Positions 15,776 through 36,819 of a DNA stretch of 64,000 nucleotides are shown here, one piece after another (positions within the stretch are counted from its first letter, which is position 1; every line of letters starts with the position of its first letter). A program made the position numbers and the translations under genes. The notes under the pieces were generated by a model. The model made no database searches. It had not been told where the DNA came from and saw only the letters and a program-made list of their open reading frames with translations. Origin of the DNA: an archaeon (GTDB lineage: Archaea > Nanobdellota > Nanobdellia > SCGC-AAA011-G17 > GW2011-AR17); assembly GCA_018653605.1 (NCBI GenBank), contig JABHYY010000018.1:120413-184412 (forward strand). The letters are read 5' to 3'.

Positions 15776-16462
15776 ATGGATAAATCCTATGAACAAGAGT
15801 ATTTCAAGCTAGAAAAGGAATATTGGTGGTTTAAAGCAAGAAGACACCTGATTAAAAAAATAAAAATCAAACCAAACCAAAAAATTTTGGAAGTTGGCTG
15901 TGGCACAGGTTTAAACCTTAACCTATTCCCAAAAAATCAAAGACATGGTATTGACATTTCTAAAGAAGCAATAAAACAAATCAAAGATTTTCCAGCAGAA
16001 GTTGCAGACATACAAAAAGTTAAACTAAAAAAATATGACATTATCCTAGCTTTAGACCTTATTGAACACCTTGACAAAGACAAACAAACACTACAAAAAC
16101 TAACAAACGCTCTAAACCCAAAAGGTAAACTCATAATCACAGTCCCAGCATTCAAATGCCTCTGGTCAAAACATGATGAAGTAAATCATCACAAAAGAAG
16201 ATACAACAGAAAACAATTCAAAACAATCCTACCTAAACAACTAAAGACAAACATCCTAACATACTGGAATTTCAGCCTATTCCCCATAGTATTCATATTA
16301 AACAAACTAAACAAAAAAAAATCAAACCTAAAACCAATCAACCCAGTTCTAAATTTCATATTCTACAATAAACTTAAACTAGAAAATTGGCTAATTACAC
16401 AAGGAATCAACTTCCCTTTTGGAACAAGTATATTCTACATAGGTGAGAAAACAGATAAATAA
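15776..16462 (+). CDS. Class I SAM-dependent methyltransferase
   Basis: Motif I ILEVGCGTGLNLNLF; post-I D-I-S; motif II ILALDLIEHL. Confidence 0.7.
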   Translation: MDKSYEQEYFKLEKEYWWFKARRHLIKKIKIKPNQKILEVGCGTGLNLNLFPKNQRHGIDISKEAIKQIKDFPAEVADIQKVKLKKYDIILALDLIEHLDKDKQTLQKLTNALNPKGKLIITVPAFKCLWSKHDEVNHHKRRYNRKQFKTILPKQLKTNILTYWNFSLFPIVFILNKLNKKKSNLKPINPVLNFIFYNKLKLENWLITQGINFPFGTSIFYIGEKTDK

Positions 16463-16493
16463 AACTTATAAAGGGAAAACTAAACTCAAACCC

Positions 16494-17372
16494 ATGCTTG
16501 TAGTAATATCAATCCCAGCTTTGAATGAAGAGAAAACATTGCCTTTTGTTTTAACTGAAATAAAAACAGTAATGGCCAGAACAAAGTACAAATACAAAAT
16601 TCTAGTAATAAATGATGGTTCTACAGATAAAACAGTACAGGTTGCAAAAAAACATGGTGCAGTAGTCTATTCAAATTCAAGGAATAAAGGTCTAGCAGAA
16701 ACATTCAAGCATGAAATGAAAAGATGTTTAGAACTAAAAGCAGACATCATAGTACACACAGATGCAGATGGACAATATCCTGCTGAATACATCCCAAAAC
16801 TAATCCAAGAAATTGAAAATGGTGCAGAATTAGTTCTAGGAAGCAGATTTGCTGGAGAAATTGAATCAATGTCATTCATGAAAAAGTTTGGCAACATTGC
16901 ATTTGCAAAATTATTCTCAAGACTAACAAAAACTGACTTAACAGATTCAACAACAGGATTCAGAGCATTCACAAGACAAATTGCAGAAGAGATTGAATAC
17001 ACAACAGACTTCACTTACACTCACGAACAACTTATCAAAGCTTCAAGATTAAAATTCAAAATAAAAGAAATTCCAATCTTTGCAAGAAAAACAAGAGAAA
17101 GCAGACTAATGAAAGGTCCACTTGACTATGCAATGAAAGCATGGATTAACATATTCAGAATCCACAGAGATTTTGCACCTTTAGCATTCTTTGGAAAAAT
17201 TGGAATTGCATTCTTAGCATTAGGATCAATCTTAGGACTATGGGTAATCTTCAATGTTGTAGCTTATGGCCAGACAGGTGGAATCCCTAGAGTTATCCTT
17301 ACAGCAATCTTAATTCTAACTGGAATACAAATTATCCTCTTTGGATTCCTAGCAGACATGCAGAAGAAATAA
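16494..17372 (+). CDS. Family-2 glycosyltransferase, dolichyl-phosphate hexose synthase-like, with a C-terminal TM anchor
   Basis: LVVISIPALNEE...KILVINDGSTDKT...HTDADGQ (DxD); two C-terminal TM helices. The start is taken at MLVVIS. Confidence 0.75.
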   Translation: MLVVISIPALNEEKTLPFVLTEIKTVMARTKYKYKILVINDGSTDKTVQVAKKHGAVVYSNSRNKGLAETFKHEMKRCLELKADIIVHTDADGQYPAEYIPKLIQEIENGAELVLGSRFAGEIESMSFMKKFGNIAFAKLFSRLTKTDLTDSTTGFRAFTRQIAEEIEYTTDFTYTHEQLIKASRLKFKIKEIPIFARKTRESRLMKGPLDYAMKAWINIFRIHRDFAPLAFFGKIGIAFLALGSILGLWVIFNVVAYGQTGGIPRVILTAILILTGIQIILFGFLADMQKK

Positions 17373-17396: not shown

Positions 17397-18509
17397 ATGA
17401 AAATCACAGTTATTGGACCAACATTTCCATACAAAGGAGGAATTTCACACTATAACACAGTTTTCTGTCAAAAATTAATCAAAAAACACAAAATAGATGC
17501 AATCTCATTCAAAAGACAATACCCAAAATTACTCTTCCCAGGCAAGGACCAAAAAGACAATAAAAGCAAAGACAGAATCAAGTTCAGAGCAACAGAAATC
17601 ATTGACACATTAAACCCATTCACTTGGCTAAAAGCAGTAAAACGAATACACGAGTTCTGTCCAGAAATAGTTCTACTTTACTGGTGGACTCCATACTTCA
17701 CATTCAACTTTTTCACAATCAGCTACTTAGTAAAAAAACTAACAAGATCAAAAGTAGTTTTTCTATGCCACAATGTAGCACCACATGAAGCAAGGTTTGT
17801 TGACAAGTTTCTAACAAAGATTGGTCTATCATACGCAGACTCATTCATTGTACATGGTGAAGAAGAAAAAGAAACACTAAAATCAATGGTACCAAAAGCA
17901 AAAATCACAAAACATGTTCACCCAACTTATGACATTTTCAAAGAAAAGTTCAAAAAGCAAGATATAAATTTAAAACTAAGAAAAAAGGTTATTTTATTCT
18001 TTGGTTATGTGAGGAAGTATAAAGGTTTAGACCATTTGTTAGATGCACTACCAGAACTAGTTAAAAAATATCCTGATTTAGACTTGCTTATTGTTGGAGA
18101 ATTTTGGAAAGACTCTGATGAAACATTAGAAAAGATAAAAAATCATCCAGCAAAGGATCACATTAAACTAGTTGACTCATATGTACCAAATGAAAAAGTA
18201 GGAAATTACTTTGAAGTATGCGACATTTGTGTTCTACCTTACAACACAGCAACAAACTCAGGAATTGTACAAACAGCATTTGCATTTGAAAAACCATGTG
18301 TTGTAACAAGAGTTGGAGCACTACCAGAAGTTGTGACTCACGACAAAACAGGCTTAGTTATCGACAGAAAAAGCCCAAAAGCAATAGTAGAAGCAGTATC
18401 ACACTTTTATGATAAAAACAAAGCAAAAGAATACAAACAAAACATAATTAAAGAAAAAGACAGATTCTCTTGGGATAGACTAGTTGAAGTCTTAGAAAAA
18501 CAAAAATGA
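17397..18509 (+). CDS. GT-B glycosyltransferase, family 4-like
   Basis: GT-B C-terminal domain: GYVRKYKGLDHLLDA...LLIVGEF...E-x7-E-like. Paralogous to 24056-25207. Confidence 0.65.
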   Translation: MKITVIGPTFPYKGGISHYNTVFCQKLIKKHKIDAISFKRQYPKLLFPGKDQKDNKSKDRIKFRATEIIDTLNPFTWLKAVKRIHEFCPEIVLLYWWTPYFTFNFFTISYLVKKLTRSKVVFLCHNVAPHEARFVDKFLTKIGLSYADSFIVHGEEEKETLKSMVPKAKITKHVHPTYDIFKEKFKKQDINLKLRKKVILFFGYVRKYKGLDHLLDALPELVKKYPDLDLLIVGEFWKDSDETLEKIKNHPAKDHIKLVDSYVPNEKVGNYFEVCDICVLPYNTATNSGIVQTAFAFEKPCVVTRVGALPEVVTHDKTGLVIDRKSPKAIVEAVSHFYDKNKAKEYKQNIIKEKDRFSWDRLVEVLEKQK

Positions 18510-19573
18510 AACCTAAAGTCGCAATAATAAACAGCACTTATGAAAGGATAGATATTAAGGAACTACTAACTTCAATAGACTACACTCCAAAGAAAAAGAA
18601 AATTCTACTAAAACCTAACATTGTTGGTCCAAAAGATGAAAACTCACATGTCATCACAAACCCCAAAGTTTTGATAGCACTAATTGAATACTTCAAAGAT
18701 TATGAAATTGTTATTGGAGAAGGGTCAGTTGCAGGCACTGACACCAAATTATGTTTTAAATCAGCAGGTTATGAAGAAATTGCAAAGAAATACAATGTTA
18801 AGCTATTAGATTTCAATGTTTGCGAAAGAAAAAAAGTAAAATGGAAATATGGAGAACTTTCACTTCCAAAGATTCTTGACACACATGAATACATTAATGT
18901 TGCAAAAATGAAAACTCATCTGCAAACCACAGTGACCCTTGCAATGAAAAACCAAAAAGGTTTATTATCACCTTTAGACAAAAAAGAGTTCCACAAGTCA
19001 GGTGAAATTAATGCAAAGATTGCAGCATTGAATGAAGTTATTAAACCTGATTTGAATGTCATTGACGCAATTGACTGTATGGAAGGCAATGGTCCTGGTG
19101 CTGAAGGTACTAAAATAACAATCAACAAATTATTAGCATCAACAGATGTTTATGCAATTGACAATGCAGCACTAAAAATAATGGGCATTCCAATTAACAA
19201 AGTAAAGTATATGAAGAAGCAAGAATACGAAACAATTGGAATTTTATCAGAACACAGATTCAAAATGCCCGACGAGTACTACCACAAACTAGGTTTAAGA
19301 ATGTGGTTCAACAGTTCTTGCTCAGGATGCAACCATAACATCATGACAGCAATCAAAACACTACCTAAGTATCCATTCAAAACAATCAAATTCTTATTTT
19401 TAGTAACATTTGGAAAATTGAACATAATTGCAGGACCAGATTATAGCAAACTACCAAAAAAAGGTAAAATAATTTGTGTAGGCACATGCACAAAAAAACT
19501 AGCAAAAGAAAAGGGTTACTTTCATATAGATGGATGTCCACCAAAAGTTGAAGAGATCATAAAATGGTTGTAG
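18506..19573 (+). CDS. DUF362-family protein with a C-terminal Cys cluster (putative Fe-S protein)
   Basis: N-terminal KVAIINSTYERID...ILLKPNIVGP...VIGEGSVAG is DUF362-like. C-terminal CSGC...CVGTC...GCPP. Paralogous to 19564-20646 and 21767-22891. Confidence 0.5.
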   Translation: MKPKVAIINSTYERIDIKELLTSIDYTPKKKKILLKPNIVGPKDENSHVITNPKVLIALIEYFKDYEIVIGEGSVAGTDTKLCFKSAGYEEIAKKYNVKLLDFNVCERKKVKWKYGELSLPKILDTHEYINVAKMKTHLQTTVTLAMKNQKGLLSPLDKKEFHKSGEINAKIAALNEVIKPDLNVIDAIDCMEGNGPGAEGTKITINKLLASTDVYAIDNAALKIMGIPINKVKYMKKQEYETIGILSEHRFKMPDEYYHKLGLRMWFNSSCSGCNHNIMTAIKTLPKYPFKTIKFLFLVTFGKLNIIAGPDYSKLPKKGKIICVGTCTKKLAKEKGYFHIDGCPPKVEEIIKWL

Positions 19574-20646
19574 TAATAAAAAAAACAAAGTTGAAAAACA
19601 TTGACAAAGATGTAGCACAAGCTCTACAACAGATCAAATACCAACCAAAAAAGAAAAAAGTTATGATAAAACCTAATTTAGTCTATGGTACAGGTGCAAA
19701 ATCAGGAATAATCACACACCCAAAACTTGTTGAAGCACTAATTAAATTCCTACAAAAGTTTGATTGTGAAATAACAATAGCAGAAGGCAGTGGAGTTGGA
19801 CACAACACAAAACAAGTTTTCAAAAAAACTGGCTATGAAAACCTAGCAAACAAATATGGAGTAAAATTATTAGATTTGAATACCTGTGAAAGAAACGAAC
19901 ACAAATGGAAATATGGAAAAATAAAATTACCAAAGATTCTTGATGATCATGAATACATCAATGTTCCGACGCTAAAAACACACACAATCACAACAGTTAC
20001 ATTAGGAACAAAAAACCAAAAGGGATTATTAGATTGGCCAACAAAAAAATCATTCCACACAATTGGAGTTGACAAAAGTGTAAGAGCTTTAGCAGATGTA
20101 GTACAACCTGATTTAACAGTAATAAACGCATTATACTGTTTAGAAGGAAATTCTATTTCATTACTAAAAACAGGAAAGAAAATGAACATGATCATTGCAG
20201 GTCAAGACATGTTTGAAACTGACAACATTGGAATACAAGTTATGCAAACTGATTCTTCACAAATCAAACATTTTCCAATAATTAAAGACATCAAAATTAT
20301 AGGAGAAAAACTAGAAAAAGTACAAACTAAATTTGCAGAACCTCAAAAGATTAGAAAAATCCTAAACATTGAATTCCAAATGAATGGTTGCTCTGGTTGC
20401 AGTGTAAACATGGAAAGAACAATGAAAAAGATTGCAAAACACCCCTTACTACTCTTAAAATTCTTTTACTTAGCACTTTTCAAGAATATAACTTTTGTTT
20501 CTGGACATTCATTAAAGAGAGAATTAAGAAAAGGTACAAAAGTAATCTATGTTGGTATTTGCACACAAAAAATTTCTAACAACAAATACATCCAAGGGTG
20601 TCCACCAGAACCTGATTTGATCATTGAAGCTATTCGGAAAGCTTAA
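19564..20646 (+). CDS. DUF362-family protein with a C-terminal Cys cluster (putative Fe-S protein)
   Basis: VMIKPNLVYG...IAEGSGVG; C-terminal CSGC...GICTQK...GCPP. A tandem paralog of the preceding gene, overlapping it by 10 nt. Confidence 0.5.
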   Translation: MVVVIKKTKLKNIDKDVAQALQQIKYQPKKKKVMIKPNLVYGTGAKSGIITHPKLVEALIKFLQKFDCEITIAEGSGVGHNTKQVFKKTGYENLANKYGVKLLDLNTCERNEHKWKYGKIKLPKILDDHEYINVPTLKTHTITTVTLGTKNQKGLLDWPTKKSFHTIGVDKSVRALADVVQPDLTVINALYCLEGNSISLLKTGKKMNMIIAGQDMFETDNIGIQVMQTDSSQIKHFPIIKDIKIIGEKLEKVQTKFAEPQKIRKILNIEFQMNGCSGCSVNMERTMKKIAKHPLLLLKFFYLALFKNITFVSGHSLKRELRKGTKVIYVGICTQKISNNKYIQGCPPEPDLIIEAIRKA

Positions 20647-21770
20647 GAATTCAACCTTTTCTTCACAGACATAACATCTTTATACAAACCTTGCAAACTA
20701 GAAAGATTTCTAAAAGGACTACATAATGTAGAAAACCTGACATTATTATTAGCTTGATCAAAACAACAATTACAAATTGGATAAAAATCTCTTTTAGCTA
20801 ACTTCCTTCGAACACAATTAGCTTTCTTCCTTTCATCCCTCAAACATCCATCACGAACATTACCTTTTGGCTTCAATAACAAACAAGGCAACAACCCACC
20901 ATCATAATTAATTATCACATAAGAAAAAGGAATAAAACAAAAATAGTTTTTCATAACCCTATCATGGAAAAAACCTTTCTTCAACTTCAAATTCTTAAAA
21001 TATTCAACAATCCATTTCCTATTAAACTCTAAATCACAATCAACATCCAAATCAGAAGCAACAGCAATCCCCTTATCAATATACTCAATAATAGAATCAA
21101 CATCATAATCAGCAAACTCACTTTTATCACCAACAGCACCTAACTGAGGAAAATTACTCTCAATATTAATTGGTCTAAACATCACCTTACGAATACCTTT
21201 CTCCTTAGCCAACTTAACAATCTCAGGAATTTGTTTATAATTTTGACCCATTATAATCGATTCAAAAGAAATATTATCAAAACCTTTAGACTGGAACTTT
21301 TCAATACCTTTCATAATCATTTCATACAACTTAGGAGTTCGCCTACAATGATTATGCTCTTCAGCAACAGAAGAATCCAAAGAAATAATCAAAGAATCTA
21401 AATTCTTTAACAAAACCTCCATCTTATCATCAGACAAAACAGGCAACAATAAACCATTTGTAACAATTCCAACCTTAATTCCAGCCTCTTTCAACTTTTC
21501 AATTATCAAATAAATATCTTTTCTTAAAAAAACCTCACCACCACTCAAAGTCAAGTACTTAATACCCATGTCCTTCATCTCTTTAATCAACACCAAAGCT
21601 CTTTCAGTGCTAACTTCCTCTTCAGGCTTATACATATTCTTTATCCCCAATTCACAAAAGGGACACTTACAATTACACTGTGCTGTAATAATCCAATTAG
21701 CAATAAAAGGAGAATCCTTTTTACCATAATAAATATTCAACAATTTACCCATCTCTTTAACATTACTCAT
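20643..21770 (-). CDS. Radical SAM enzyme with a C-terminal SPASM/twitch-like Cys-rich domain
   Basis: CNCKCPFC (CX3CX2C), SGGEVFL; C-terminal CLLLKPKGNVRDGC...CNCCFD cluster. Confidence 0.75.
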   Translation of the reverse strand: MSNVKEMGKLLNIYYGKKDSPFIANWIITAQCNCKCPFCELGIKNMYKPEEEVSTERALVLIKEMKDMGIKYLTLSGGEVFLRKDIYLIIEKLKEAGIKVGIVTNGLLLPVLSDDKMEVLLKNLDSLIISLDSSVAEEHNHCRRTPKLYEMIMKGIEKFQSKGFDNISFESIIMGQNYKQIPEIVKLAKEKGIRKVMFRPINIESNFPQLGAVGDKSEFADYDVDSIIEYIDKGIAVASDLDVDCDLEFNRKWIVEYFKNLKLKKGFFHDRVMKNYFCFIPFSYVIINYDGGLLPCLLLKPKGNVRDGCLRDERKKANCVRRKLAKRDFYPICNCCFDQANNNVRFSTLCSPFRNLSSLQGLYKDVMSVKKRLNS

Positions 21771-22891
21771 TTCAAACTCCTCTTAACCCTTTTTTCAATA
21801 AATCTCCTCAAATAAGTCTTATGTATTTTAATTGCATCCTCAGGACAAACTTCATGACAACAGAAACATTTGATACACTTACTATAATCAATAACAGGTT
21901 TTTTATCTTTAGGACTAATAGCTTTTGCAGGACAAATCTTTATACAATTAAAACAAGACACACACTTATCAAGAACAATCACAGGTTTTGCATCAAACAA
22001 CCTTTTAGCTAAAGGATAAGATATCTTCTGAACTTTCCCAAAAATAGGAGAGCCAGTAAAAGAATCAGGCATTTTAATTGTCTTTCCAATGTAAACATGA
22101 TCACCAACAACTTCAGCCTCTTCATAAACTCCTCTTTCCTTAGCAATTCTCTGAATAGGAATCTCTGAATCTTTTTGACCAACAATTTTAACAACAGCAC
22201 TATCCAAAGCAAAAGCACTTTTAGAACATGCCATAAAGCCAAACTTCCTAGGAACACCATTTGAAGGACCATTCCCTTCCATCCCAACAACCCCATCCAA
22301 AATTGTCAAATCAGGTTTAACAAAATTAAAAACATCAATCAACATGTGAGCAAAAGCATCCCTATCCCTTCCAGTTTTGAAATGCATTTGATTTCTATTA
22401 TCAGGCTTAACCAACCCAAACATGTTTTTCACACCTAAAGTCAAACCCATCAAAGAATGTGTTTTCAGTTTAGCTAAACTAACAATAAAATCAGCCTTTG
22501 CTGCAACAGGAACTGCCAACTTCTTAAAATGCACATTAGAACTATTTTCAACAAACTCAAATTCTCCCAACTCTTTAATCTCAACATCCAAATCAGAACA
22601 AATTTTATCAACACCACACTTCTTTGCAGCATTCAAAGCAGAACCAATACTAGGAATCTCATAAATAAAAGGTTTACCACCCTTCTCAATAATAACCTTC
22701 AAAACAGCCTCGATAACAACAGGATGAGTGATAACAGCACTAGATGCATCTTTAGCCAAAAGAAAATTAGGCTTAACCAAAACAGACTTACCTTTCAAGT
22801 CCATATCAAAACAATCTTTAACAAAATCATAAACTTTCAAATCATAATTTTCAACATTCCTAATTAGAACTTTTTCCATTTCCTGCTCCAA
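21767..22891 (-). CDS. DUF362 domain fused to a 2x[4Fe-4S] ferredoxin domain
   Basis: VLVKPNFLLAKD...DGVVGMEGNGP is DUF362-like. C-terminal CVSCFNCIKICP and CIKCFCCHEVCP are two CxxCxxCxxxCP motifs. Stop/start overlaps with both flanking radical SAM genes. Confidence 0.65.
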   Translation of the reverse strand: MEQEMEKVLIRNVENYDLKVYDFVKDCFDMDLKGKSVLVKPNFLLAKDASSAVITHPVVIEAVLKVIIEKGGKPFIYEIPSIGSALNAAKKCGVDKICSDLDVEIKELGEFEFVENSSNVHFKKLAVPVAAKADFIVSLAKLKTHSLMGLTLGVKNMFGLVKPDNRNQMHFKTGRDRDAFAHMLIDVFNFVKPDLTILDGVVGMEGNGPSNGVPRKFGFMACSKSAFALDSAVVKIVGQKDSEIPIQRIAKERGVYEEAEVVGDHVYIGKTIKMPDSFTGSPIFGKVQKISYPLAKRLFDAKPVIVLDKCVSCFNCIKICPAKAISPKDKKPVIDYSKCIKCFCCHEVCPEDAIKIHKTYLRRFIEKRVKRSLK

Positions 22892-24059
22892 AAAAATAAT
22901 AGTAAAACACTTTAGTCAACTCTTTTGGACTCAAAACAGTATCCAAGAAAGATTGCCCTACTAAAGGACAATGACACTGGTTAGATTTTACAAACTTTCT
23001 CATCTCATTTGCTCTTTCAGAATGCCACAACTTATCAAAATCAAAAGCAAAGTCTCTAACATTACCCATCTCCTTCTGAAAGGCTTGCACATTACACAAC
23101 CACATTCCACCCCAAGGATTCAAATGAGAATTACTTATTCCAGCATAACAAGGAACAACTCTTTTACCACCAACCATAACTTTTTCAGCTCTTTTGTAAT
23201 ACACCAACCTCAAAGCCTGAACAAACCTACTAAACTTCCTATTAACTTTCATTTGCTCTCTAACATCATCCAACAAAAGACCAATCACTTTTTCATAATC
23301 ATTTCCAGTCGGTGTAACATGCAAATCACCCATCACACCCTCAAACTCATCTTGCAATTCTTTATCAGTATCAACATTAAACAATTCAGCTCTAGTGTCA
23401 GCAATCTCATGCAAAAAATTATCCAACCTAAACTCTTTTTCAACATACTCAGTAATTTCTTTAATATCACCAAGGTTACTCATACTAACAGTAACACCAG
23501 CATCCAAGTACAAGTTAGGATGCAACACTCTAATCTTAGCCAACCTTTTGTAAGTATCAACCAACTTATCAAAATTACCTTCAACACCTCTGATCTTATC
23601 ATGCTTTTCACCAATCCCATCCAAAGACAACTTAATTGTAAATTTAACATCCTTAGGAATCCTTCTCATAATACTCAAAGTCAACTTTTCAACTTTTTCA
23701 GGTGACAAACAATTAGTAGGAGTGTGAATCACTGTAGGCTTAAGATGTTTACAAGCAAGAACACAAATTTTATCCAAATCCTCTCTCAAAAAAGGTTCAC
23801 CACCACAAATACTCAACTGAAAAACAGGATCCATAGTCTTAAACACTTTTTCAATCTCATGCAAATTCAACTCTTTCTTCTCTTTTTCAGGAAACTCTTT
23901 ATACAACTTCCAAATATTACACATTGTACACTTAGATTGGCACTTATTAGTTATACTAAAATTAAAAAACAAAGGATGAGGAGGCCTAGCTAATCCCCAC
24001 ATAGCCAACTTATACTTTACCAATCTTGGAAAAACTTTCAAACCATATTTCAATATCAT
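22860..24059 (-). CDS. Radical SAM enzyme with a C-terminal SPASM/twitch-like Cys-rich domain
   Basis: CQSKCTMC (CX3CX2C), CGGEPFL; C-terminal VPCYAGISNS...WLCN...CHCP. Confidence 0.7.
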   Translation of the reverse strand: MILKYGLKVFPRLVKYKLAMWGLARPPHPLFFNFSITNKCQSKCTMCNIWKLYKEFPEKEKKELNLHEIEKVFKTMDPVFQLSICGGEPFLREDLDKICVLACKHLKPTVIHTPTNCLSPEKVEKLTLSIMRRIPKDVKFTIKLSLDGIGEKHDKIRGVEGNFDKLVDTYKRLAKIRVLHPNLYLDAGVTVSMSNLGDIKEITEYVEKEFRLDNFLHEIADTRAELFNVDTDKELQDEFEGVMGDLHVTPTGNDYEKVIGLLLDDVREQMKVNRKFSRFVQALRLVYYKRAEKVMVGGKRVVPCYAGISNSHLNPWGGMWLCNVQAFQKEMGNVRDFAFDFDKLWHSERANEMRKFVKSNQCHCPLVGQSFLDTVLSPKELTKVFYYYFFGAGNGKSSN

Positions 24060-25207
24060 TCTAAAACCCTCTCATACACTTCTGCAGTCTTTTTTGCAAC
24101 TCTTTCCCACTCAAACTGAGAATCAGCAATTCTTGCACCTAAAGATAACTTAGTTTGTAATTTTTTATCATTTAATAACTTTATCACACTATGAGCCAAC
24201 TTATTAACATTACCACCCTCAACAACCATAGCATTCTCACCATCTTTCAAAACTTCCATTATACCACCAACATCAGAAACAATAATTGGTTTGTTAAATG
24301 CTAACCCAACCAAAAGAGGACCACTTATAGTTTGTTCAGTGTTATGATAAGGCAAAACCATTATATCAGCCAAATCAAAATACTTGTGAACATCTTTATC
24401 TAAAATGTAATCAGGAAACATCCTAACATACTTTTCAATCCCTTCTAAATCATCTTCATACTCTTGCAAATCTTGCCAAAGTTCACCAGCAACAACCAAC
24501 CTAGCCTTAGGAACCTCTTTAATCACTTCTTTCATTGCCCTCAAAAGATATCTCAAACCTTTATACTCTCTAATATAACCAAAGAACAAAACAACTTGAT
24601 CATCATTTGACAATCCCATTTCCTTTCTCAAATCAGCCTTACTCTCTTTCTTCCACTTAGTAAAATATCCAAAAGTACCATGAGGCACAACATGAACATT
24701 AGAATCCTTAATCCCATAATCACCAACCAACCTTTTCCTATTCTGCTCAGCATGCACAATAAAATGATCAATCTTAGAAAAAACAGCTTTAGTAAAAACT
24801 TTATCAACAGCAGTTGACTCATGTGGCTCAATATTATGACAAGTTAAAACAGTTTTCTTCCTAGCAAAGAATTTATTCAAAACAAGAATCACATACTGCA
24901 AAGGTGTAAGCAAAGGTGAAACCCAATGTAAATGAATCACTTGATTATTTTTCAAAAAATTATAAGCCTTAACCCAAGACAAAGGATTGTACCAAGTTAC
25001 AAAATTATAACTTCTCTTGTAAAACCTAATCCCACTTCTATCTTTTGTAGGCAATTTACCTTTGTAAAAAAATGGAGGATACAATTTATCAAACCCAACC
25101 AACCTATGATCAACATACTCTTTCATAGAATTAGCCAAAAGTATACAGTATTGCACAATCCCACCTTGAAAAGGAGGATTATGCACCAACATTCCAACTC
25201 TAATCAT
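24056..25207 (-). CDS. GT-B glycosyltransferase, family 4-like
   Basis: Paralog of 17397-18509 (VGMLVHNPPFQGGIVQY versus ITVIGPTFPYKGGISHY). GT-B C-terminal domain. Confidence 0.65.
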   Translation of the reverse strand: MIRVGMLVHNPPFQGGIVQYCILLANSMKEYVDHRLVGFDKLYPPFFYKGKLPTKDRSGIRFYKRSYNFVTWYNPLSWVKAYNFLKNNQVIHLHWVSPLLTPLQYVILVLNKFFARKKTVLTCHNIEPHESTAVDKVFTKAVFSKIDHFIVHAEQNRKRLVGDYGIKDSNVHVVPHGTFGYFTKWKKESKADLRKEMGLSNDDQVVLFFGYIREYKGLRYLLRAMKEVIKEVPKARLVVAGELWQDLQEYEDDLEGIEKYVRMFPDYILDKDVHKYFDLADIMVLPYHNTEQTISGPLLVGLAFNKPIIVSDVGGIMEVLKDGENAMVVEGGNVNKLAHSVIKLLNDKKLQTKLSLGARIADSQFEWERVAKKTAEVYERVLE

Positions 25208-26645
25208 CTTTCTTAAACAATATCTTTCCCTTTATAATAGATTTTGCCCCCCTAAAAGTATATTTGAAATCTTCATAATTCTTAATCTTTGCAACTTGCG
25301 ACAACACATAAGATGGCCTTAAGAAAAACTTAGCATGTGCATTACTTACAATATCCTTCATCTCTTCACGAGGGATTATAGTTTTCAACACAGGCCCTGA
25401 AGTCATGTCAAACTTTGAACAATCATTCAAAACATCACTATAAAACCAATCATTCTCAATAGCCTGATCATACATCTCAGAACCAGGATGTGGAAACACT
25501 AACGAATACTGCACAGTGTCAGCTTCTAACTTCAAACCAAAATTAATAGTATTATCCATCTCAGCTTTAGTTTCCCAAGGAAACCCAACCATCAAATTCA
25601 CATGACAAATGATTCCAGCCAACTTAGTTAACTTAACTGCCCTTTCAGTCTGACCAACATCAATTTTTTTATTAGTTTTTTCCAAAGTTCTAGGATTCGC
25701 AGACTCAACACCATAACAAATCAATTTACACCCAGCTTGTTTCATTAACTGCAACATTTCCAAATCAACACAATCAACCCTTCCACTACAACTCCACACA
25801 ATATTAACATCTCTTCTTAAAATCTCATCACAAAACTCAACAACTCTTTTCTTAGAAATATTAAATGTCCCTTCATCAAAAAACACCTCTTCCATCCCAT
25901 ACCTCTTAATCAACCACTCCAACTCATCCACAACATTCTTTGCAGACCTAACCCTCACACTATGCCCATAATACACATGAGGCCAAAGACAAAAAGTACA
26001 CTTGTTAGGACACCCTCTTGCAGCCATCACAAAAGTAAAAGGAAAATTTCTAACATGCCCTTCAATATACCATTCATGTGGAATCAAGTCTCTATCAGGA
26101 AAAGGCAAAGTATCCAAATCCTTGATTAATTCAGCAGGTTCATTATTAACTATATCATCACCATCCATAAAACAAATCCCTTTAACTTTCTTTAAAGATC
26201 TTTTTTTCTTAATTGCATTAACAACATTCAAAGTAGTTTGATCCATCTCACCTTTAATCACAACATCAACTTTACTATTTTCAACAGTTTTTTCAGGGAA
26301 TTTGGTCACATGACTACCAGCCATCAAAACTTTAACATCAAACCTATCTTTAATTTTATTAACAACCTTCAAATCATAAGCATAAGTTGGAGTTGCAGTT
26401 TCAATAAAAATAACATCAGGATCAAAAGCACCAACTTCATCCAAAGTTCTTTTCAAATCAAAATCCTGAATCACAGAATCAATATATTTTACATCATAGC
26501 CATTCTCTTTAAGCAAAGTAGCCACATAACACAACAAAATCGGATATCTATTGGTTTTATCCCCTCTTTTCCTAGGCCACCTATTCTGGCTTCTAAGCCC
26601 ATAACCCTCTCCAGGCCATGGTGGATGCAAAAATAAGATTTTCAT
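25200..26645 (-). CDS. B12-binding-domain radical SAM enzyme (class B)
   Basis: An N-terminal B12-binding Rossmann-like domain (KILFLHPPW..., DVIFIE) followed by a radical SAM core AARGCPNKCTFC. Confidence 0.8.
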   Translation of the reverse strand: MKILFLHPPWPGEGYGLRSQNRWPRKRGDKTNRYPILLCYVATLLKENGYDVKYIDSVIQDFDLKRTLDEVGAFDPDVIFIETATPTYAYDLKVVNKIKDRFDVKVLMAGSHVTKFPEKTVENSKVDVVIKGEMDQTTLNVVNAIKKKRSLKKVKGICFMDGDDIVNNEPAELIKDLDTLPFPDRDLIPHEWYIEGHVRNFPFTFVMAARGCPNKCTFCLWPHVYYGHSVRVRSAKNVVDELEWLIKRYGMEEVFFDEGTFNISKKRVVEFCDEILRRDVNIVWSCSGRVDCVDLEMLQLMKQAGCKLICYGVESANPRTLEKTNKKIDVGQTERAVKLTKLAGIICHVNLMVGFPWETKAEMDNTINFGLKLEADTVQYSLVFPHPGSEMYDQAIENDWFYSDVLNDCSKFDMTSGPVLKTIIPREEMKDIVSNAHAKFFLRPSYVLSQVAKIKNYEDFKYTFRGAKSIIKGKILFKKDD

Positions 26646-27095: not shown

Positions 27096-28100
27096 ATGCA
27101 AAAGCTAAAATTAATGGCAAAAACAGGAACAACCATCACAAAAGTAGGCCTAGGCTCAAGAATTCCACTAAGAGTAACTCACATTGTAACAAATGCATGC
27201 AACTTAAGATGTAAATATTGTTATGCAGAATCATTCCAAAAACAAAAAGAAATGTCAACCAAACAAATCATGGACATGATGCTTGAATTCAAAGCAATGG
27301 GCACAAAGATTTGGAAAATTGGAGGTGGCGAACCTCTTCTAAGAAAAGACATTGACAAAATAATCACATTTGGCAAAAAACAAGGGTTCACTATAAACAT
27401 GGACACCAATGGAACACTTGTTAAAAAAAACATTGAAACCTTAAAAAAATTAGACCATGTACAAATTAGCCTTGATGGCCCTGAAGAAGTGCATGATAAA
27501 ATCAGAGGAAAAGGTGTTTACAAACAATGCATAGAAGCTTTTGACTTATTAAACAAAGAGAATGTTAAACCGCTAATCAACTGTGTTATTAGCAAACACA
27601 ACATTGACCACATTGAATACATGTGCGACCTTGCAAAAGAAAAAGACACTTTTATCAATTTTCAACCAGTTGTTCCAGTTACAAAAGATGCAGAACAAGA
27701 ATTTTCAAAAGAAATCATAGAAAAAAAAGTGTTTGACAAGATTTTAGAGTTGAAAAAAACCAATAAACACATTGCAGTTTCAGATGCAAGCCTAAAAAGG
27801 TTCAAAGCATTTTATGAAGGAAAGATTACTAAGTTCCAAAAAAACTGTTTAGCAGGAAAAATATACTGCATTGTTTCGCCACAAGGCAAAGTTGGCAGAT
27901 GCATTGACGAACTTGGAACAAAAAATGTTGATGCTTTAGAACTTGGTTTCAAGAACGCATTTAAAGCACTTTCACAAGACTATTCCTGCGACTGCACTTT
28001 CTGTTGCTACTATGACTTATCAAGAGTTTACTCACTCAACCCAAAGCACAACCTAAGAGCTGCCTTTAATGTCCTTTCTGGCAGATGGGTCTACAACTAA
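27096..28100 (+). CDS. Radical SAM enzyme with a C-terminal SPASM/twitch-like domain
   Basis: CNLRCKYC (CX3CX2C), IGGGEPLL; C-terminal CLAGKIYC...GRC...CDCTFCC. Confidence 0.75.
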   Translation: MQKLKLMAKTGTTITKVGLGSRIPLRVTHIVTNACNLRCKYCYAESFQKQKEMSTKQIMDMMLEFKAMGTKIWKIGGGEPLLRKDIDKIITFGKKQGFTINMDTNGTLVKKNIETLKKLDHVQISLDGPEEVHDKIRGKGVYKQCIEAFDLLNKENVKPLINCVISKHNIDHIEYMCDLAKEKDTFINFQPVVPVTKDAEQEFSKEIIEKKVFDKILELKKTNKHIAVSDASLKRFKAFYEGKITKFQKNCLAGKIYCIVSPQGKVGRCIDELGTKNVDALELGFKNAFKALSQDYSCDCTFCCYYDLSRVYSLNPKHNLRAAFNVLSGRWVYN

Positions 28101-31992: not shown

Positions 31993-33465
31993 ATGAAACA
32001 CCCTCTTAGAAACATTGCAAAAGGTGCAGGTATTGTACTCTTTGGAATAATCATCTCAAAATTCTTAGGTTATCTTTACAGAATCATCATTGCAAGGCTT
32101 GGACCAGAAGCCTATGGTGAGCTATCCTTAGGCCTTGCAGTTTTCGGAATTCTAAGCATTGTTTCAATATTAGGTCTGGACATGGGAATTCTCAGATACA
32201 TTTCAATATACAAAAGCAAAAACCAGAATGAACAAATCAAAGGCACAATAACCTTTGCAATGAAAACAACAGTAACAATAGCAATAATACTAGGAACATT
32301 ACTATTCATTTTCGCAAACCAAATATCAACATTTTTCTTTCACACTGAAAACATCACAATCTTAATAAAAATAATAGCATTCGCACTACCATTTGAAGCA
32401 ATTCGAGTTATCACAGTAAACACATTCAAAGCATTCTCAAAAATCCAATACGATGTTTACACAAGAATTTTAACAGAAAACACACTAAAAATAATTTTAA
32501 CCCTAATATTCATACAACTAGGACTGAGTGTAACAGGAGCAATACTAGCTTTCACCCTATCAATAATAATCAGCACAATTTTCTCATTAACAGTATTACA
32601 AACAAAAGTATTCAAACTAACAAACAAAATAAAATCAATCTGCAAAAGAAAAGAAGTTCTGCTATACTCAATCCCATTATTATTCAACTCATTAACAATC
32701 ATGATAATAACTTGGATTGACACCTTAATGCTTGGCTTTTTCAGAACAACAGCAGAAGTTGGTATTTACAACGCAGCAATCCCAACAGCAAAACTAATCT
32801 TAATCCTACCAACAGCAATGATTGGACTTTTCATTCCAACAATCTCAGAATACTTAGACAACAAAACCCAACTAAGAAGACTGTTTTACATAACAACAAA
32901 ATGGATTTTAATAATTAACCTGCTATTCCTTTCACTAGCAATAATTTTCAGCCAAGAACTACTAACCATCCTATTCGGCTCACAATACACAGCAGGTTAC
33001 ATAGCACTAACAATCTTAATCACTGGATATTTCATAAATGGCCTTGTTTACACATCAAGAGACATCTTAATGCTACTCAAAAAAAGCAAAATAATCTTAA
33101 TAGCAACTTTAATAGGCGGTACGCTAAACATAATCTTGAACTACATCCTAATTCCAATATACGGCTTCAATGGCGCAGCAATGGCAACAGCAATATCACT
33201 AATAATCCTAAGCTTAATCCTGTTCATAAAAACAAAAATAAAACTAATAAACTTTAAACTAATCAAAGTATTCATAGTTGGAGCACTGTCAGCTCTATTA
33301 ACATACTACATAATAACATTAATAACAATACAAAACCAAATCTTACTAGTATTAACAGGAACCATTATAATGCTAACAATCTATCCAATAGCATTATACA
33401 TAACAAACAGCTTTGAAAAACAAGACATAACAATAATGAAGACAATCAGAAGCAAGCTAAAATGA
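31993..33465 (+). CDS. wzx: Oligosaccharide/polysaccharide flippase (Wzx, MOP superfamily)
   Basis: A 490-aa protein with ~14 TM helices. The N-terminus NIAKGAGIVLFGIIISKFLGYLYRIIIAR is typical of polysaccharide-biosynthesis flippases. Confidence 0.7.
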   Translation: MKHPLRNIAKGAGIVLFGIIISKFLGYLYRIIIARLGPEAYGELSLGLAVFGILSIVSILGLDMGILRYISIYKSKNQNEQIKGTITFAMKTTVTIAIILGTLLFIFANQISTFFFHTENITILIKIIAFALPFEAIRVITVNTFKAFSKIQYDVYTRILTENTLKIILTLIFIQLGLSVTGAILAFTLSIIISTIFSLTVLQTKVFKLTNKIKSICKRKEVLLYSIPLLFNSLTIMIITWIDTLMLGFFRTTAEVGIYNAAIPTAKLILILPTAMIGLFIPTISEYLDNKTQLRRLFYITTKWILIINLLFLSLAIIFSQELLTILFGSQYTAGYIALTILITGYFINGLVYTSRDILMLLKKSKIILIATLIGGTLNIILNYILIPIYGFNGAAMATAISLIILSLILFIKTKIKLINFKLIKVFIVGALSALLTYYIITLITIQNQILLVLTGTIIMLTIYPIALYITNSFEKQDITIMKTIRSKLK

Positions 33466-35339
33466 ACAAATACACCTATGAGATAAAGAAATCACCTAAA
33501 GCAACACCAATCAAAGCTTACAGATTCTTCAGAAAAAAAGTAGTTCTAAACATAAAAAGCCAATACATCAAATTCAAACCAATAAAAGTAAGTGACCAAG
33601 ACTTTTACAAACTTAACAATGTAAAAACAAAAAAGCAACTAATGCGAAAAATAAACCAAAAATTCCTTTTCATAAACACAATCAAGCTAAGAGATAAAGA
33701 ATTAATAGAAAAAGCAAACAACATTTTAAAAAAACAATACACTTACCTAGGAAAAACATACAAACTCAAAACAATAAACTGGCACCAAGATTTCAACTCA
33801 AAAAAAGTTTGGCCACTAGAACATTTCTCAACAATGCAATATGAAAATCTCAAAGACAACTCAGACATTAAAATTGTATGGGACTTTAACAGATTTCACC
33901 ATTTCCCAATCTTAGGTATAGCATACCAACAAACAAAAAACAAAAAATATGTTAAAGAATTTCAAGAACAAGTTATTAACTGGATAAAAAACAACCCAGT
34001 AGAATTCGGACCAAACTGGCTAACTCCAATGGAAGTTTCAATCAGAGCAATCAACTGGATCTACGCCTACCATCTTTTCAAAGATTGCACTGACATTGAT
34101 GAAAGGTTTTGGAAAGAATACTTCAAACAACTCTACTACAAAGGCAAATACATTAGAAACAACCTAGAATGGAGCCCAAAAAAAGAAAACCATTACATTT
34201 CAGACATTGTAGGCTTATTTTTCATAGGAACCACATTCAAAAACACAGACTTTGGAAAAAAATGGATCATATTTGCAAGAAAAGAACTTGAAAAAGAAAT
34301 AACAAAACAAGTTTCAGAAGATGGAGTAGACTATGAAGCTTCAATCAACTACCACAGACTTGTAACAGAACTATTCATGCTTACATACTTACTTGCACAA
34401 AAAAATAAAATAAAATTAAGTGAAAATTACACAAAAAGATTAGAAAACATGCTTGAATTCATCATGTACTACACAAAACCAAATGGCCAAGCATCAAGAA
34501 TTGGAGACACTGACAATGGCAGAGTGATAGACTTATGGACAGAAGACATCAATGACCATAGAGAACTCCTTTCAATAGGAGCTGTACTTTTCAGTAGAAG
34601 AGATTTCAAACACCATAGCAAAGATAACAAAACCTTACCATGGATAATGGGCTATGATACTTATAAGAAATACAAAACCATGAAAAAAGAAAAAAAAGAA
34701 TTACAATCAAAAACATTCAAACACTATCATATCATGCGAGACAAAGACTTTTTCTTAATGATACACTGTGGAGACATTGGAAGAGCTGGTTTTGGAGGCC
34801 ATGGCCATTGCGACCAACTTAGCTTTGAACTTTACTACAAAAAAGACATTGTAATTGACCCTGGAACTTTTTGCTACACTTCAAATGTAAGACAAAGACA
34901 CTTGTTCAGATCAAGTGCATACCATAACACAGTAAAAGTCAATGGAACTGAAATGGACGAAATAGAAATAGGCAAACCATTCTCAATGCTTTGGAAATCA
35001 AAAGCAAAATGCATCAAATGGGAAACAGGAGAAAAAGATGTTTTTGTTGGCAAACACCAGGGTTTTGACCCACACACTCACCTAAGAAGAATCATTTATG
35101 ACAAAAAAAGAAAAGAGGTCTTAATTACAGACAAAGTTACAAAATTCCCCAAAAGATTAGAGATAAACTTTCACATAGACAACAAAGACTTCAAAAAAGC
35201 AATAACAAGTAGTGTCAAACTAAAACCAATCAAAGGCTGGAAATCAGATTCATATGGAGTTAGAAAACCTTCAACAATTCTACAAGCAAAAACAGGTGAA
35301 ATTGAAATAACCACAATTATCAACCTACAAAAAGCTTAA
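33462..35339 (+). CDS. Heparinase II/III-like (alginate-lyase-fold) protein
   Basis: NWHQDF...WDFNRFHHF...GPNWLTPMEVSIRAINWIYAYHLF matches the conserved W/NW...E.SIR..NW core of Hepar_II_III-family proteins found in glycan loci. Its start overlaps the wzx stop. Confidence 0.5.
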   Translation: MNKYTYEIKKSPKATPIKAYRFFRKKVVLNIKSQYIKFKPIKVSDQDFYKLNNVKTKKQLMRKINQKFLFINTIKLRDKELIEKANNILKKQYTYLGKTYKLKTINWHQDFNSKKVWPLEHFSTMQYENLKDNSDIKIVWDFNRFHHFPILGIAYQQTKNKKYVKEFQEQVINWIKNNPVEFGPNWLTPMEVSIRAINWIYAYHLFKDCTDIDERFWKEYFKQLYYKGKYIRNNLEWSPKKENHYISDIVGLFFIGTTFKNTDFGKKWIIFARKELEKEITKQVSEDGVDYEASINYHRLVTELFMLTYLLAQKNKIKLSENYTKRLENMLEFIMYYTKPNGQASRIGDTDNGRVIDLWTEDINDHRELLSIGAVLFSRRDFKHHSKDNKTLPWIMGYDTYKKYKTMKKEKKELQSKTFKHYHIMRDKDFFLMIHCGDIGRAGFGGHGHCDQLSFELYYKKDIVIDPGTFCYTSNVRQRHLFRSSAYHNTVKVNGTEMDEIEIGKPFSMLWKSKAKCIKWETGEKDVFVGKHQGFDPHTHLRRIIYDKKRKEVLITDKVTKFPKRLEINFHIDNKDFKKAITSSVKLKPIKGWKSDSYGVRKPSTILQAKTGEIEITTIINLQKA

Positions 35340-35355
35340 AAATACCACAAAAAAC

Positions 35356-36819
35356 TTGACTACAATGCGAATACTATTCCTTATTCCAGAAATTCGAATT
35401 GCTAGGTACACACTACCCTTCTGGCTAAAAAGGCTAAACCCACCAGAATCACCACACCTAGGTGTAGCACAACTCTGCGAAATCTTGAAACAAAATGGCC
35501 ATCTAGTAAAAGTTATAGATTTGCAACTAAAAAACAAAGCTTATGCTAATAGAATTATCAAAAAGTTCAAACCAAATGTAATAGGCTTCACAATAACAAG
35601 CTACTGCACAGAAAAAGTTTACAATCATATTAGAAAAATAAAAGAACAACACCCAAGAACACCAATAATGGTAGGTGGTGCACACCCTTCTTGTGTTGGA
35701 AAAGATGTTCTAAAACAATGCGAAAAGATAGACTTTGCAGTTGTTGGTGAAGGTGAACAAACAATAATTGAATTGTTAAATGCTATTAAAAAAAATAAAG
35801 GTTTTTCAGATATTGATGGTTTAGGTTGGAGAAAGAATGGGGAGATTATAGCTAACAAACCAAGAAAATTCATTGACAACCTTGATGAAGTACCATTTCC
35901 AAAATACCATGAATTCAATTTACCCAAATATCAAGATTGGAAACAAAATAGTATATCAATGATAACTTCAAGAGGTTGCCCTTTCAGTTGTGTTTACTGT
36001 TCTGTGTTCCAAAGCATGGGGAAAAAGTTTAGAGTTCGTACAGCAGAGAATGTTGTAAAAGAAATTGAATACTGGCACAAAAGAGGGATTAAGAAATTTA
36101 ACTTCAATGACGACTGTTTCACACTAAAACCAAAACGAGTTGAAGAAATCTGTGACTTGATTCTTAAGAAAAAATTGAAAATTGAGTATAGGCTGTACAA
36201 TGGGATTAGAGTTGATTTATTGACCAAAGAATTAGTACACAAAATGAAACTAGCAGGTTGCACATCAACTTCTTTAGGTATAGAGACTGGAAATGAAGAA
36301 ACAATGCGACACATTAAGAAAAATATTAACTTTGACCAAGTTTTTAAGGCTATTAAATGGTTAAAAGAAGAAAAAATTGCTACTGTTGGAAACTTTATCA
36401 TCGGTCACCCATATGAAACTTACGAAAAAGGTTTAGATACAATCAAAATGTCAGAAAAAATAGAAACCGACTATATTAATTTTAATAATGTAATTCCATA
36501 TCCAGGAACAGAATTATTTGACTGGATAAAAACTCATGGTAAATTTACAATCTCTCCTGAAGTTTACCTTAACAATGTTTCAGGCAAAAGAATGAAAATG
36601 CCTCTTTTTGAAACCAAAGATTTTTCAGTTAAAGAAAGAGAAAAGTTATTGAAAAAAGGAGTTTATAATTTCAGGAAAAGGTACATTAGGAGCAAAGTTA
36701 GAAAACCTTTTTCAGAAATTTTAGTATATTTAGCAAAGTCCGATATAGCATTTGGTTTAATCGAAACAGCTAAAAACATGAAGATATTTACTATAATTAA
36801 GAAGAGTTTGATGAAATAA
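35356..36819 (+). CDS. B12-binding-domain radical SAM enzyme (class B)
   Basis: A B12-binding N-terminal domain followed by TSRGCPFSCVYC (CX3CX2C). Confidence 0.8.
   Translation: MTTMRILFLIPEIRIARYTLPFWLKRLNPPESPHLGVAQLCEILKQNGHLVKVIDLQLKNKAYANRIIKKFKPNVIGFTITSYCTEKVYNHIRKIKEQHPRTPIMVGGAHPSCVGKDVLKQCEKIDFAVVGEGEQTIIELLNAIKKNKGFSDIDGLGWRKNGEIIANKPRKFIDNLDEVPFPKYHEFNLPKYQDWKQNSISMITSRGCPFSCVYCSVFQSMGKKFRVRTAENVVKEIEYWHKRGIKKFNFNDDCFTLKPKRVEEICDLILKKKLKIEYRLYNGIRVDLLTKELVHKMKLAGCTSTSLGIETGNEETMRHIKKNINFDQVFKAIKWLKEEKIATVGNFIIGHPYETYEKGLDTIKMSEKIETDYINFNNVIPYPGTELFDWIKTHGKFTISPEVYLNNVSGKRMKMPLFETKDFSVKEREKLLKKGVYNFRKRYIRSKVRKPFSEILVYLAKSDIAFGLIETAKNMKIFTIIKKSLMK

Follow-up and report, generated by a model that had tools for sequence, protein, structure and literature searches.

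What do DUF362 proteins do, and why should three of them be encoded beside two radical S-adenosylmethionine (SAM) proteins in one archaeal locus? The family (PF04015, COG2006) is concentrated in anaerobes and archaea, and we found no functional study of it in the searchable literature. The locus lies in a stretch of 64,000 nucleotides (called the window here) from a Nanobdellota archaeon (contig JABHYY010000018.1). Positions 18506-24059 of the window encode three PF04015 proteins, which we call DUF362-A, DUF362-B and DUF362-Fd, and two radical SAM proteins, rSAM1 and rSAM2 (open reading frames (ORFs) in Table 1). A sequence-only reading of this DNA, which had rightly given DUF362 as a family of no established function, suggested that these proteins act as electron donors or partner subunits of the radical SAM enzymes. 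It named a distinct redox step on the glycan as the alternative. A redox role based on iron-sulfur (Fe-S) clusters agrees with our results, but the electron-donor role does not hold as a general rule, and the fold of the proteins, which is that of the lactate racemase LarA, favours the alternative. Our preferred answer, which we put forward tentatively, is that the DUF362 proteins are LarA-fold oxidoreductases that are wired by Fe-S clusters and carry out a redox tailoring step of their own on a sugar.

Domain structure of the DUF362 proteins

The Pfam scan of the window proteins confirmed the family membership for which the sequence-only reading had proposed a hidden Markov model (HMM) search: the three proteins score 159, 125 and 176 bits against a gathering cut-off (GA) of 24 bits for PF04015. 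A model of DUF362-A was built from a 47-sequence alignment (A1) and has a predicted local distance difference test score (pLDDT) of 94.9. In this predicted structure, residues 1 to approximately 255 (18506-19270) adopt the fold of the LarA N-terminal domain. Residues 262-355 approximately (19289-19570) form a [4Fe-4S] domain resembling NuoB and the hydrogenase small subunit, a flavodoxin-like fold with four cysteines that include the one in the C-terminal GCPP motif. DUF362-B is a paralog with the same two-domain build and 41% identity to DUF362-A. The cysteine quartet is C272, C275, C328 and C344 in DUF362-A and C276, C279, C333 and C346 in DUF362-B. In this GCPP type, the four cysteines (CSxC…GxC…GCPP) are invariant across 47 homologues and would fit one [4Fe-4S] cluster.

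The tail shares the invariant CxxC…GxC…GCPP pattern with the N-terminal domain of NuoB and the [NiFe]-hydrogenase small subunit (Oxidored_q6, PF01058), which holds the N2 or proximal [4Fe-4S] cluster. The likeness has limits. The match to PF01058 at the GCPP end of DUF362-B reaches 17.2 bits, below the cut-off of 27, and DUF362-A has no PF01058 match in the Pfam scan. Unlike NuoB and the small subunit, the DUF362 tail is fused to a LarA-fold domain, has no hydrogenase large subunit or NuoD to pair with, and comes without medial or distal clusters.

DUF362-Fd consists of a LarA-fold domain followed by a 2x[4Fe-4S] ferredoxin domain (residues 302-357; 21821-21988), which contains two CxxCxxCxxxCP motifs and matches Fer4-family HMMs above their cut-offs. 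Its cysteines C310/313/316/320 and C339/342/345/349 are invariant across 50 homologues. The terminal cysteine clusters that the sequence-only reading had seen in all three proteins are thus conserved in a manner that fits Fe-S ligation. We rejected the notion of a ferredoxin fusion peculiar to this locus. It is the commonest DUF362 architecture, with more than 5000 homologues at E ≤ 1e-10, and the window copy has the same architecture and the same invariant residues as the generic fusions of PF04015 with Fer4 in anaerobic bacteria and archaea. It differs from them in its position between two radical SAM genes; the copies at ≤41% identity stand alone in the five contexts examined.

DUF362-A and the ferredoxin type share 29% identity over 260 residues. 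Motifs that are invariant in both the GCPP and the ferredoxin types are KPN, GEG, K(x)KTH, KNxxG, a histidine approximately 15 residues further on, and (M)EGxGP. In the model, the invariant polar residues of these motifs are found where the parallel strands of the LarA-fold domain reach their C-terminal ends. A profile of the GCPP subfamily retrieved 11,598 clusters at 50% identity (E ≤ 1e-3); among the top 150, almost every one spans both domains. No solved DUF362 structure came up in PDB sequence searches with DUF362-Fd and profile A1, which matched ferredoxin domains only.

Relation to LarA and a proposed mechanism

True LarA proteins (P0245-P0247, P0241) reach 25.8 bits against the Pfam DUF362 model, above its cut-off of 24 bits, with LarA residues 82-245 matching model positions 18-171. 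Since lactate racemases exceed the DUF362 cut-off, the two families are linked by sequence as well as by fold. DUF362 and DUF2088 are placed in the same Pfam clan, CL0471 (PMC11770544). The LarA superfamily (Lar_N/DUF2088; PDB IDs: 5HUQ, 7S91, 9EIA, 9Q3J and 4NAR) comprises 2-hydroxyacid racemases and epimerases that depend on the nickel-pincer nucleotide (NPN). The DUF362 proteins differ from it in having Fe-S domains in place of LarA_C, and LarA is redox-neutral whereas the DUF362 proteins carry electron-transfer clusters. At E ≤ 0.01, none of the three proteins was matched by Lar_N (PF09861) or LarA_C (PF21113).

We infer the catalytic pocket, the sugar substrate and the direction of electron flow from this comparison and from the gene context. 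The LarA-fold domain would form a catalytic or cofactor pocket lined by invariant residues (Lys, His, Asn and Glu) located where the strands end. The C-terminal domain of LarA would have been swapped for an electron-transfer module, one NuoB-like [4Fe-4S] domain in DUF362-A and DUF362-B and a 2x[4Fe-4S] ferredoxin in DUF362-Fd, so that one or two [4Fe-4S] clusters with all-cysteine ligation would feed the LarA-like pocket. The substrate may be a sugar or sugar-acid intermediate of the glycan island in which the genes lie, and the redox step could be an oxidation or a reduction at a hydroxyl-bearing carbon, with ketoreduction, dehydrogenation or net epimerisation as the outcome. The proteins would trade electrons with the ferredoxin pool or, as a further possibility, with the auxiliary clusters that the neighbouring radical SAM enzymes carry. 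The DUF362 proteins would then work in the same pathway as the radical SAM enzymes that are coupled to glycosyltransferases (GTs), as accessory rather than obligatory subunits.

A domain acting on carbohydrate fits two reports, in that fusions of DUF362 with CBM9 and dockerin domains have been described (PMC5742341) and sugar acids are substrates of some LarA relatives (PMC11770544).

The radical SAM proteins and their coupling to DUF362

The main idea of the sequence-only reading was that the DUF362 proteins, and DUF362-Fd between rSAM2 and rSAM1 foremost, are dedicated redox partners. Spelled out for the present proteins, they would bind the radical SAM enzymes and either supply the low-potential electron for the SAM-binding [4Fe-4S] cluster or take up electrons from the auxiliary clusters, and the LarA-like domain would be a docking module or a dehydrogenase serving as electron source. 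Both types of Fe-S domain are classical electron-transfer modules, which speaks for this idea, and so does the arrangement of the genes.

The operon layout was found as the sequence-only reading had described it: a plus-strand operon of methyltransferase, GT2, GT4, DUF362 and DUF362 converges on a minus-strand operon of B12-binding radical SAM, GT4, rSAM2, DUF362-Fd and rSAM1. The junctions were read from the sequence. On the plus strand, the stop codon of the GT4 gene (GT4a) overlaps the start of DUF362-A by 4 nucleotides (ATGA), and DUF362-A overlaps DUF362-B by 10 nucleotides. On the minus strand, the overlaps are 8 nucleotides between the B12-binding radical SAM gene and GT4b, 4 between GT4b and rSAM2, and 4 between DUF362-Fd and rSAM1. 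The rSAM2/DUF362-Fd overlap depends on the start codon, being 20 nucleotides from ATG 22879 and 32 from TTG 22891. The mechanically called ORF of DUF362-Fd begins at the TTG. The ATG lies four codons downstream with a GGAG 7 nucleotides ahead of it, and a database protein that is 100% identical to DUF362-Fd (P0001) has 370 residues. For these two reasons ATG 22879, giving a protein of 370 residues, is the more likely start. Overlaps of 4-20 nucleotides can therefore be confirmed, and the 32 nucleotides of the sequence-only reading apply only with the TTG start. The two operons themselves share 4 nucleotides (TTAA, 20643-20646), where DUF362-B and rSAM1 have overlapping stop codons. This single TTAA leaves no intergenic room for terminators, and the transcripts should hence overlap as antisense RNA.

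The earlier assignment of rSAM1 and rSAM2 as two SPASM proteins stood in part. Both belong to the radical SAM family (PF04055, cut-off 29.5 bits) and have the CxxxCxxC motif (C32/C36/C39 in rSAM1, C40/C44/C47 in rSAM2), but their SPASM scores (PF13186) of 17.3 and 19.8 bits, respectively, fall just below the cut-off of 21.5 bits. The C-terminus of rSAM1 contains 8 cysteines and is compatible with SPASM. Its nearest solved relative is BlsE, a cytosylglucuronate decarboxylase (E=1.6e-14, core only). In rSAM2, only four C-terminal cysteines (C304, C322, C362 and C364) are invariant in an alignment of orthologues (A3). Judged by these residues, the protein has a Twitch-like motif for a single auxiliary cluster instead of a full SPASM domain; the score against NF033640, a twitch-domain radical SAM family, is 66.6 bits, below its cut-off. 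Sugar-modifying Twitch/SPASM enzymes, represented by BlsE (PDB ID: 7VOB) and the BtrN-type Twitch domain, share with rSAM1 and rSAM2 the CxxxCxxC motif, the C-terminal auxiliary-cluster cysteines and a setting in glycan biosynthesis. The similarity is confined to the radical SAM core, however, and every NCBIfam score falls far short of its cut-off. None of the characterised Twitch/SPASM enzymes is known to need a DUF362 partner.

Conservation of the gene order

The order B12-binding radical SAM, GT4, rSAM2, DUF362-Fd, rSAM1 is kept in the contig encoding P0003 (61% identity) and in a Woesearchaeota metagenome-assembled genome (MAG; L001, 56% identity). The convergent DUF362 genes (two copies or one) followed by GT4 are also kept there, as are the overlaps. 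Recurrence of the same order at 56-61% identity argues that the arrangement is not due to chance. The loci nearest to the module come from Candidatus Woesearchaeota MAGs.

More distant relatives were sampled from both sides. A scan of 185,579 species genomes for the GCPP type gave 405 relatives, from which 80 loci were kept; 8 of these drop out because greedy ORF calling missed the focal gene, so that the denominator is 72. A Twitch/SPASM radical SAM gene lies ≤4 genes from the GCPP-type DUF362 gene in 18 of the 72 loci, and in 12 of these 18 it is a specific rSAM2 orthologue (E 1e-53 to 2e-72). With a looser count (E<1e-40, ≤4 genes), the rSAM2 orthologue is found in 13/72 loci and is missing from 59/72. 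The loci that have it are spread over at least seven phyla (Altiarchaeota, Omnitrophota, Planctomycetia, Methanoperedens, Dehalococcoidia, Methanomassiliicoccales and Chloroflexota). They usually hold a recurrent cassette that reads (SDR epimerase), GT2, rSAM2-like protein, a methyltransferase of 379 residues (always at position -1), DUF362; GT4, UbiA and PMT genes are often nearby. The Altiarchaeota locus (L035) has it as five genes: SDR epimerase/dehydratase, GT2, radical SAM, methyltransferase and DUF362.

In the reciprocal scan, a profile of rSAM2 orthologues was used to collect 80 metagenome loci. A DUF362 gene is present in 7 of these 80, and in 5 of the 19 that extend ≥4 kb on both sides, which is about 10-25%. 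An obligate role of DUF362 as a subunit of the rSAM2 family was rejected on this count. The constant neighbour of the rSAM2 family is a glycosyltransferase, not DUF362: a GT2 or GT4 gene lies ≤4 genes away in 49 of 71 loci (GT2 29/71, GT4 20/71), 30 times at position -1. The pairing of DUF362 with radical SAM is thus real and far above chance, yet facultative on both sides.

Recurrent neighbours of the GCPP type are GT2, GT4, NDP-sugar epimerase/dehydratase, methyltransferase, UbiA and PMT genes. Several contexts contain no radical SAM gene. These are Anaerolineae operons with an MBL hydrolase, an aminotransferase, a thioesterase and an AMP-ligase, and a Helarchaeota locus with three GT4 genes. 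In Clostridium beijerinckii (L008), a GCPP-type DUF362 gene lies inside a polyketide synthase (PKS) cluster of type II (ketosynthases, cyclase, ACPS, CMD, DUF169), with no radical SAM or glycosyltransferase gene near it; in C. puniceum (L090), neither was found among the called neighbours. No DUF362-like gene is named in the main text of the paper on the dendrubin type II PKS. The ferredoxin type at ≤41% identity had no radical SAM neighbour in any of the five contexts examined. The sequence-only reading had made its case depend on conserved adjacency in other genomes, and the outcome is divided: adjacency holds in the relatives at 56-61% identity and, for the rSAM2 orthologue, in 13 GCPP-type loci; the other 59 lack that orthologue, most of the reciprocal set has no DUF362 gene, and the five distant ferredoxin-type contexts have no radical SAM neighbour.

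A further observation concerns stand-alone ferredoxin-type genes (L002-L004 and L091, on two different bacterial contigs). Each lies ≤2 kb upstream of a convergent transketolase gene and a gene for a VTT-domain membrane protein, with one or two genes in between. In L002-L004, it also follows genes for a polyferredoxin of 377 residues and NifU.

An enzyme in its own right or a redox partner

These results can now be set against the two leading readings. For the redox partner, the overlaps of 4-20 nucleotides across rSAM2, DUF362-Fd and rSAM1 are preserved in both close relatives, and the rSAM2 orthologue recurs near the GCPP type in many phyla. On the other side, the window holds seven radical SAM genes and three DUF362 genes, approximately 75-90% of the rSAM2-family loci have no DUF362 nearby, and most GCPP-type and all five distant ferredoxin-type loci lack the radical SAM partner. 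PKS clusters, too, contain DUF362 genes, and extracellular CBM/dockerin contexts are reported for the family (PMC5742341); no radical SAM enzyme is present in these settings. Electron shuttling does not need an enzyme fold of 250 residues with an invariant polar pocket. We therefore regard a dedicated partner role as rather doubtful.

Because of that LarA enzyme fold of approximately 250 residues, with its invariant polar pocket, we prefer a separate redox step catalysed by the DUF362 proteins to the role of a simple electron donor. The sequence link to LarA, the contexts free of radical SAM, the carbohydrate-related neighbours and an rSAM2 family that mostly does without DUF362 point the same way.

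Several considerations weigh against our preference. The clusters, each with four cysteine ligands, bind no substrate themselves, so a further redox-active group would be needed in the LarA-like pocket. DUF362-Fd is translationally coupled to radical SAM genes on both sides, and remains so at 56-61% identity; such coupling is typical of stoichiometric partners. Co-localisation with one radical SAM family across phyla in 13/72 loci is far above chance, and for this reason a physical partnership of DUF362 with rSAM2 is possible in this sub-clade. Finally, DUF362-B may be a diverged or non-catalytic paralog. It and its Woesearchaeota-like orthologues have EGNSIS/EGNSVS in place of the near-invariant EGxGP motif, and it is the loss of this motif that suggests a non-catalytic protein. 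Orthologues of DUF362-B are found in L047 and L054 (E about 1e-165), and the B type is the only GCPP-type copy kept in L001 and L054.

Alternative cofactor and accessory roles

A more specific version of the redox role would have the DUF362 proteins use NPN, or a related pyridinium hydride carrier, bound, as in LarA, through the conserved lysine and histidine. A hydride would pass from or to a sugar carbon, and the Fe-S clusters would connect the carrier to ferredoxin, giving a net dehydrogenase or reductase and not a racemase. In LarA, Lys184, His200 and Arg75 bind NPN, and the catalytic bases are His108 and His174 (PMC11770544); our LarA reference sequence is identical to that of 5HUQ. The LarA fold is present in DUF362, and hundreds of prokaryotes produce NPN without having LarA (PMC13524815). 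In DUF362-A, H138 (of KTH) aligns with His174 in three weak alignments (hhalign, a custom HMM and the Pfam-model range), none of which is significant alone (E 0.06-0.4). On the same weak basis, this probable counterpart is followed exactly 10 residues later by a lysine, K148, as Lys184 follows His174, and H163 stands 15 residues after K148, with His200 16 residues after Lys184.

These equivalences share the weakness of the alignments behind them. Custom HMMs of 97 and approximately 240 DUF362 sequences scored near zero against LarA, and their alignments are weak, mutually consistent hints. A search for LarA homologues returned only close orthologues from lactic acid bacteria, and at 77-99% identity these are too little diverse to make a good LarA profile. 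Comparison of alignment A1 or A2 with the single LarA sequence by hhalign was discarded, as it gave spurious local matches only. His108 has no counterpart in DUF362, Arg75 could not be mapped, and the DUF362 proteins lack LarA_C, the domain by which LarA closes its NPN site. No LarB, LarC or LarE gene was found within the window or among the recurrent neighbours of DUF362 loci. A two-electron hydride carrier coupled straight to Fe-S clusters without a flavin would be unusual, and a DPANN-type archaeon with a reduced genome is an unlikely NPN producer. We consider the use of NPN or a similar carrier improbable. Equally improbable, to our mind, is its fullest form, in which DUF362 proteins would be LarA-independent NPN users with a His-x9-Lys-x14-His triad, and Fe-S clusters would link the carrier with either ferredoxin or the auxiliary clusters of radical SAM enzymes.

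A non-catalytic accessory, be it an Fe-S carrier, a scaffold or a subunit with a regulatory or sensing task alongside the island's oxygen-sensitive enzymes, would suit three paralogs of which one (DUF362-B) has a degenerate motif and a family confined to anaerobe-rich lineages, but we think it very improbable given polar pocket residues kept invariant across thousands of sequences, buried electron-transfer folds with all-cysteine ligation that are untypical of cluster carriers, and the diversity of biosynthetic contexts.

Gene content of the window and the glycan island

The PCNA gene marks the window as archaeal, and its source is a Woesearchaeota-like archaeon. The module lies inside a glycan island of approximately 39 kb. 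The island encodes an initiating Glycos_transf_4 enzyme, NDP-sugar epimerases/dehydratases, a nucleotidyltransferase, several GT2 and GT4 enzymes and several methyltransferases, together with a Wzx-like flippase, a PMT_2 GT-C enzyme and a heparinase II/III-like protein. Its seven radical SAM genes comprise four of the Twitch/SPASM type and three of the B12 type. The B12-binding protein of the minus-strand operon is HpnJ-like, with 290 bits, below the NCBIfam cut-off of 578.

Table 1. Positions of genes and other features in the window, with the matches that identify them.
Feature	Position	Strand	Evidence
PCNA	4001-4759		
Glycan island	8952-47906		
SAM-dependent methyltransferase, first in plus-strand operon	15776-16462	+	Pfam Methyltransf_23/12/11, E=4.5e-14
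GT2 glycosyltransferase	16443-17372	+	PF00535, E=7.7e-24
GT4 glycosyltransferase (GT4a)	17397-18509	+	PF00534, E=2.9e-27
DUF362-A, 355 residues	18506-19573	+	PF04015, E=1.7e-46, 159.3 bits
DUF362-B, 360 residues	19564-20646	+	PF04015, E=5.4e-36, 125.0 bits
rSAM1, last in minus-strand operon	20643-21770	-	PF04055, E=7e-25, 88.5 bits
DUF362-Fd	21767-22891	-	PF04015, E=1.5e-51, 175.8 bits; several Fer4 models
rSAM2	22860-24059	-	PF04055, E=3e-12, 47.5 bits
GT4 glycosyltransferase (GT4b)	24056-25207	-	PF13692/PF00534
B12-binding radical SAM, first in minus-strand operon	25200-26645	-	PF02310 + PF04055
Twitch/SPASM-type radical SAM genes of the island	20643-21770, 22860-24059, 27096-28100, 37334-38356		
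B12-type radical SAM genes of the island	25200-26645, 35356-36819, 45646-47022		
Heparinase II/III-like gene	33462-35339		
GT4 overlapping a B12-type radical SAM gene	44507-45649		
GT2 overlapping the same radical SAM gene	47019-47906		
Giant ORF, 1451 residues	47949-52304	-	No Pfam match
Giant ORF, 3464 residues	53532-63926	-	Eight LamG_3 repeats

Most of the radical SAM genes in the island directly adjoin a glycosyltransferase gene, with overlapping stop and start codons, as in the GT4, B12-type radical SAM and GT2 genes at 44507-47906. The heparinase II/III-like gene, which has a polysaccharide lyase fold, lies between the Wzx-like flippase gene and a B12-type radical SAM gene. Two giant minus-strand ORFs come after the island. 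The larger also has segments resembling a neurotoxin receptor-binding domain and a sialidase N-terminal domain. Both are probably surface proteins and possibly targets of the glycan machinery.

Significance

Part of this picture was already on record, as PF04015 membership is ordinary, the ferredoxin fusion is the commonest architecture and the LarA link is known at the clan level. We did not find in the searchable literature the description of the GCPP tail as a domain like NuoB and the hydrogenase small subunit, the His/Lys/His spacing that weak alignments suggest is conserved between DUF362 and LarA, or the cassette in which a specific Twitch radical SAM, a GT2 and a methyltransferase recur. 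The five-gene Altiarchaeota cassette is portable and could serve for heterologous reconstitution, and the PKS locus of C. beijerinckii may offer a tractable setting in which to look for the DUF362 reaction. The findings bear, by a weakly supported link, on the question left open in PMC13524815 of which enzymes use the nickel-pincer cofactor without LarA. If the NPN reading were true, there would be ferredoxin-linked sugar dehydrogenases, reductases or epimerases that work together with GT-coupled radical SAM enzymes when archaea and bacteria tailor their glycans. With a LarA-fold core that has a pocket, two recognisable electron-transfer tails and a travelling cassette, DUF362 becomes a testable question of enzymology.

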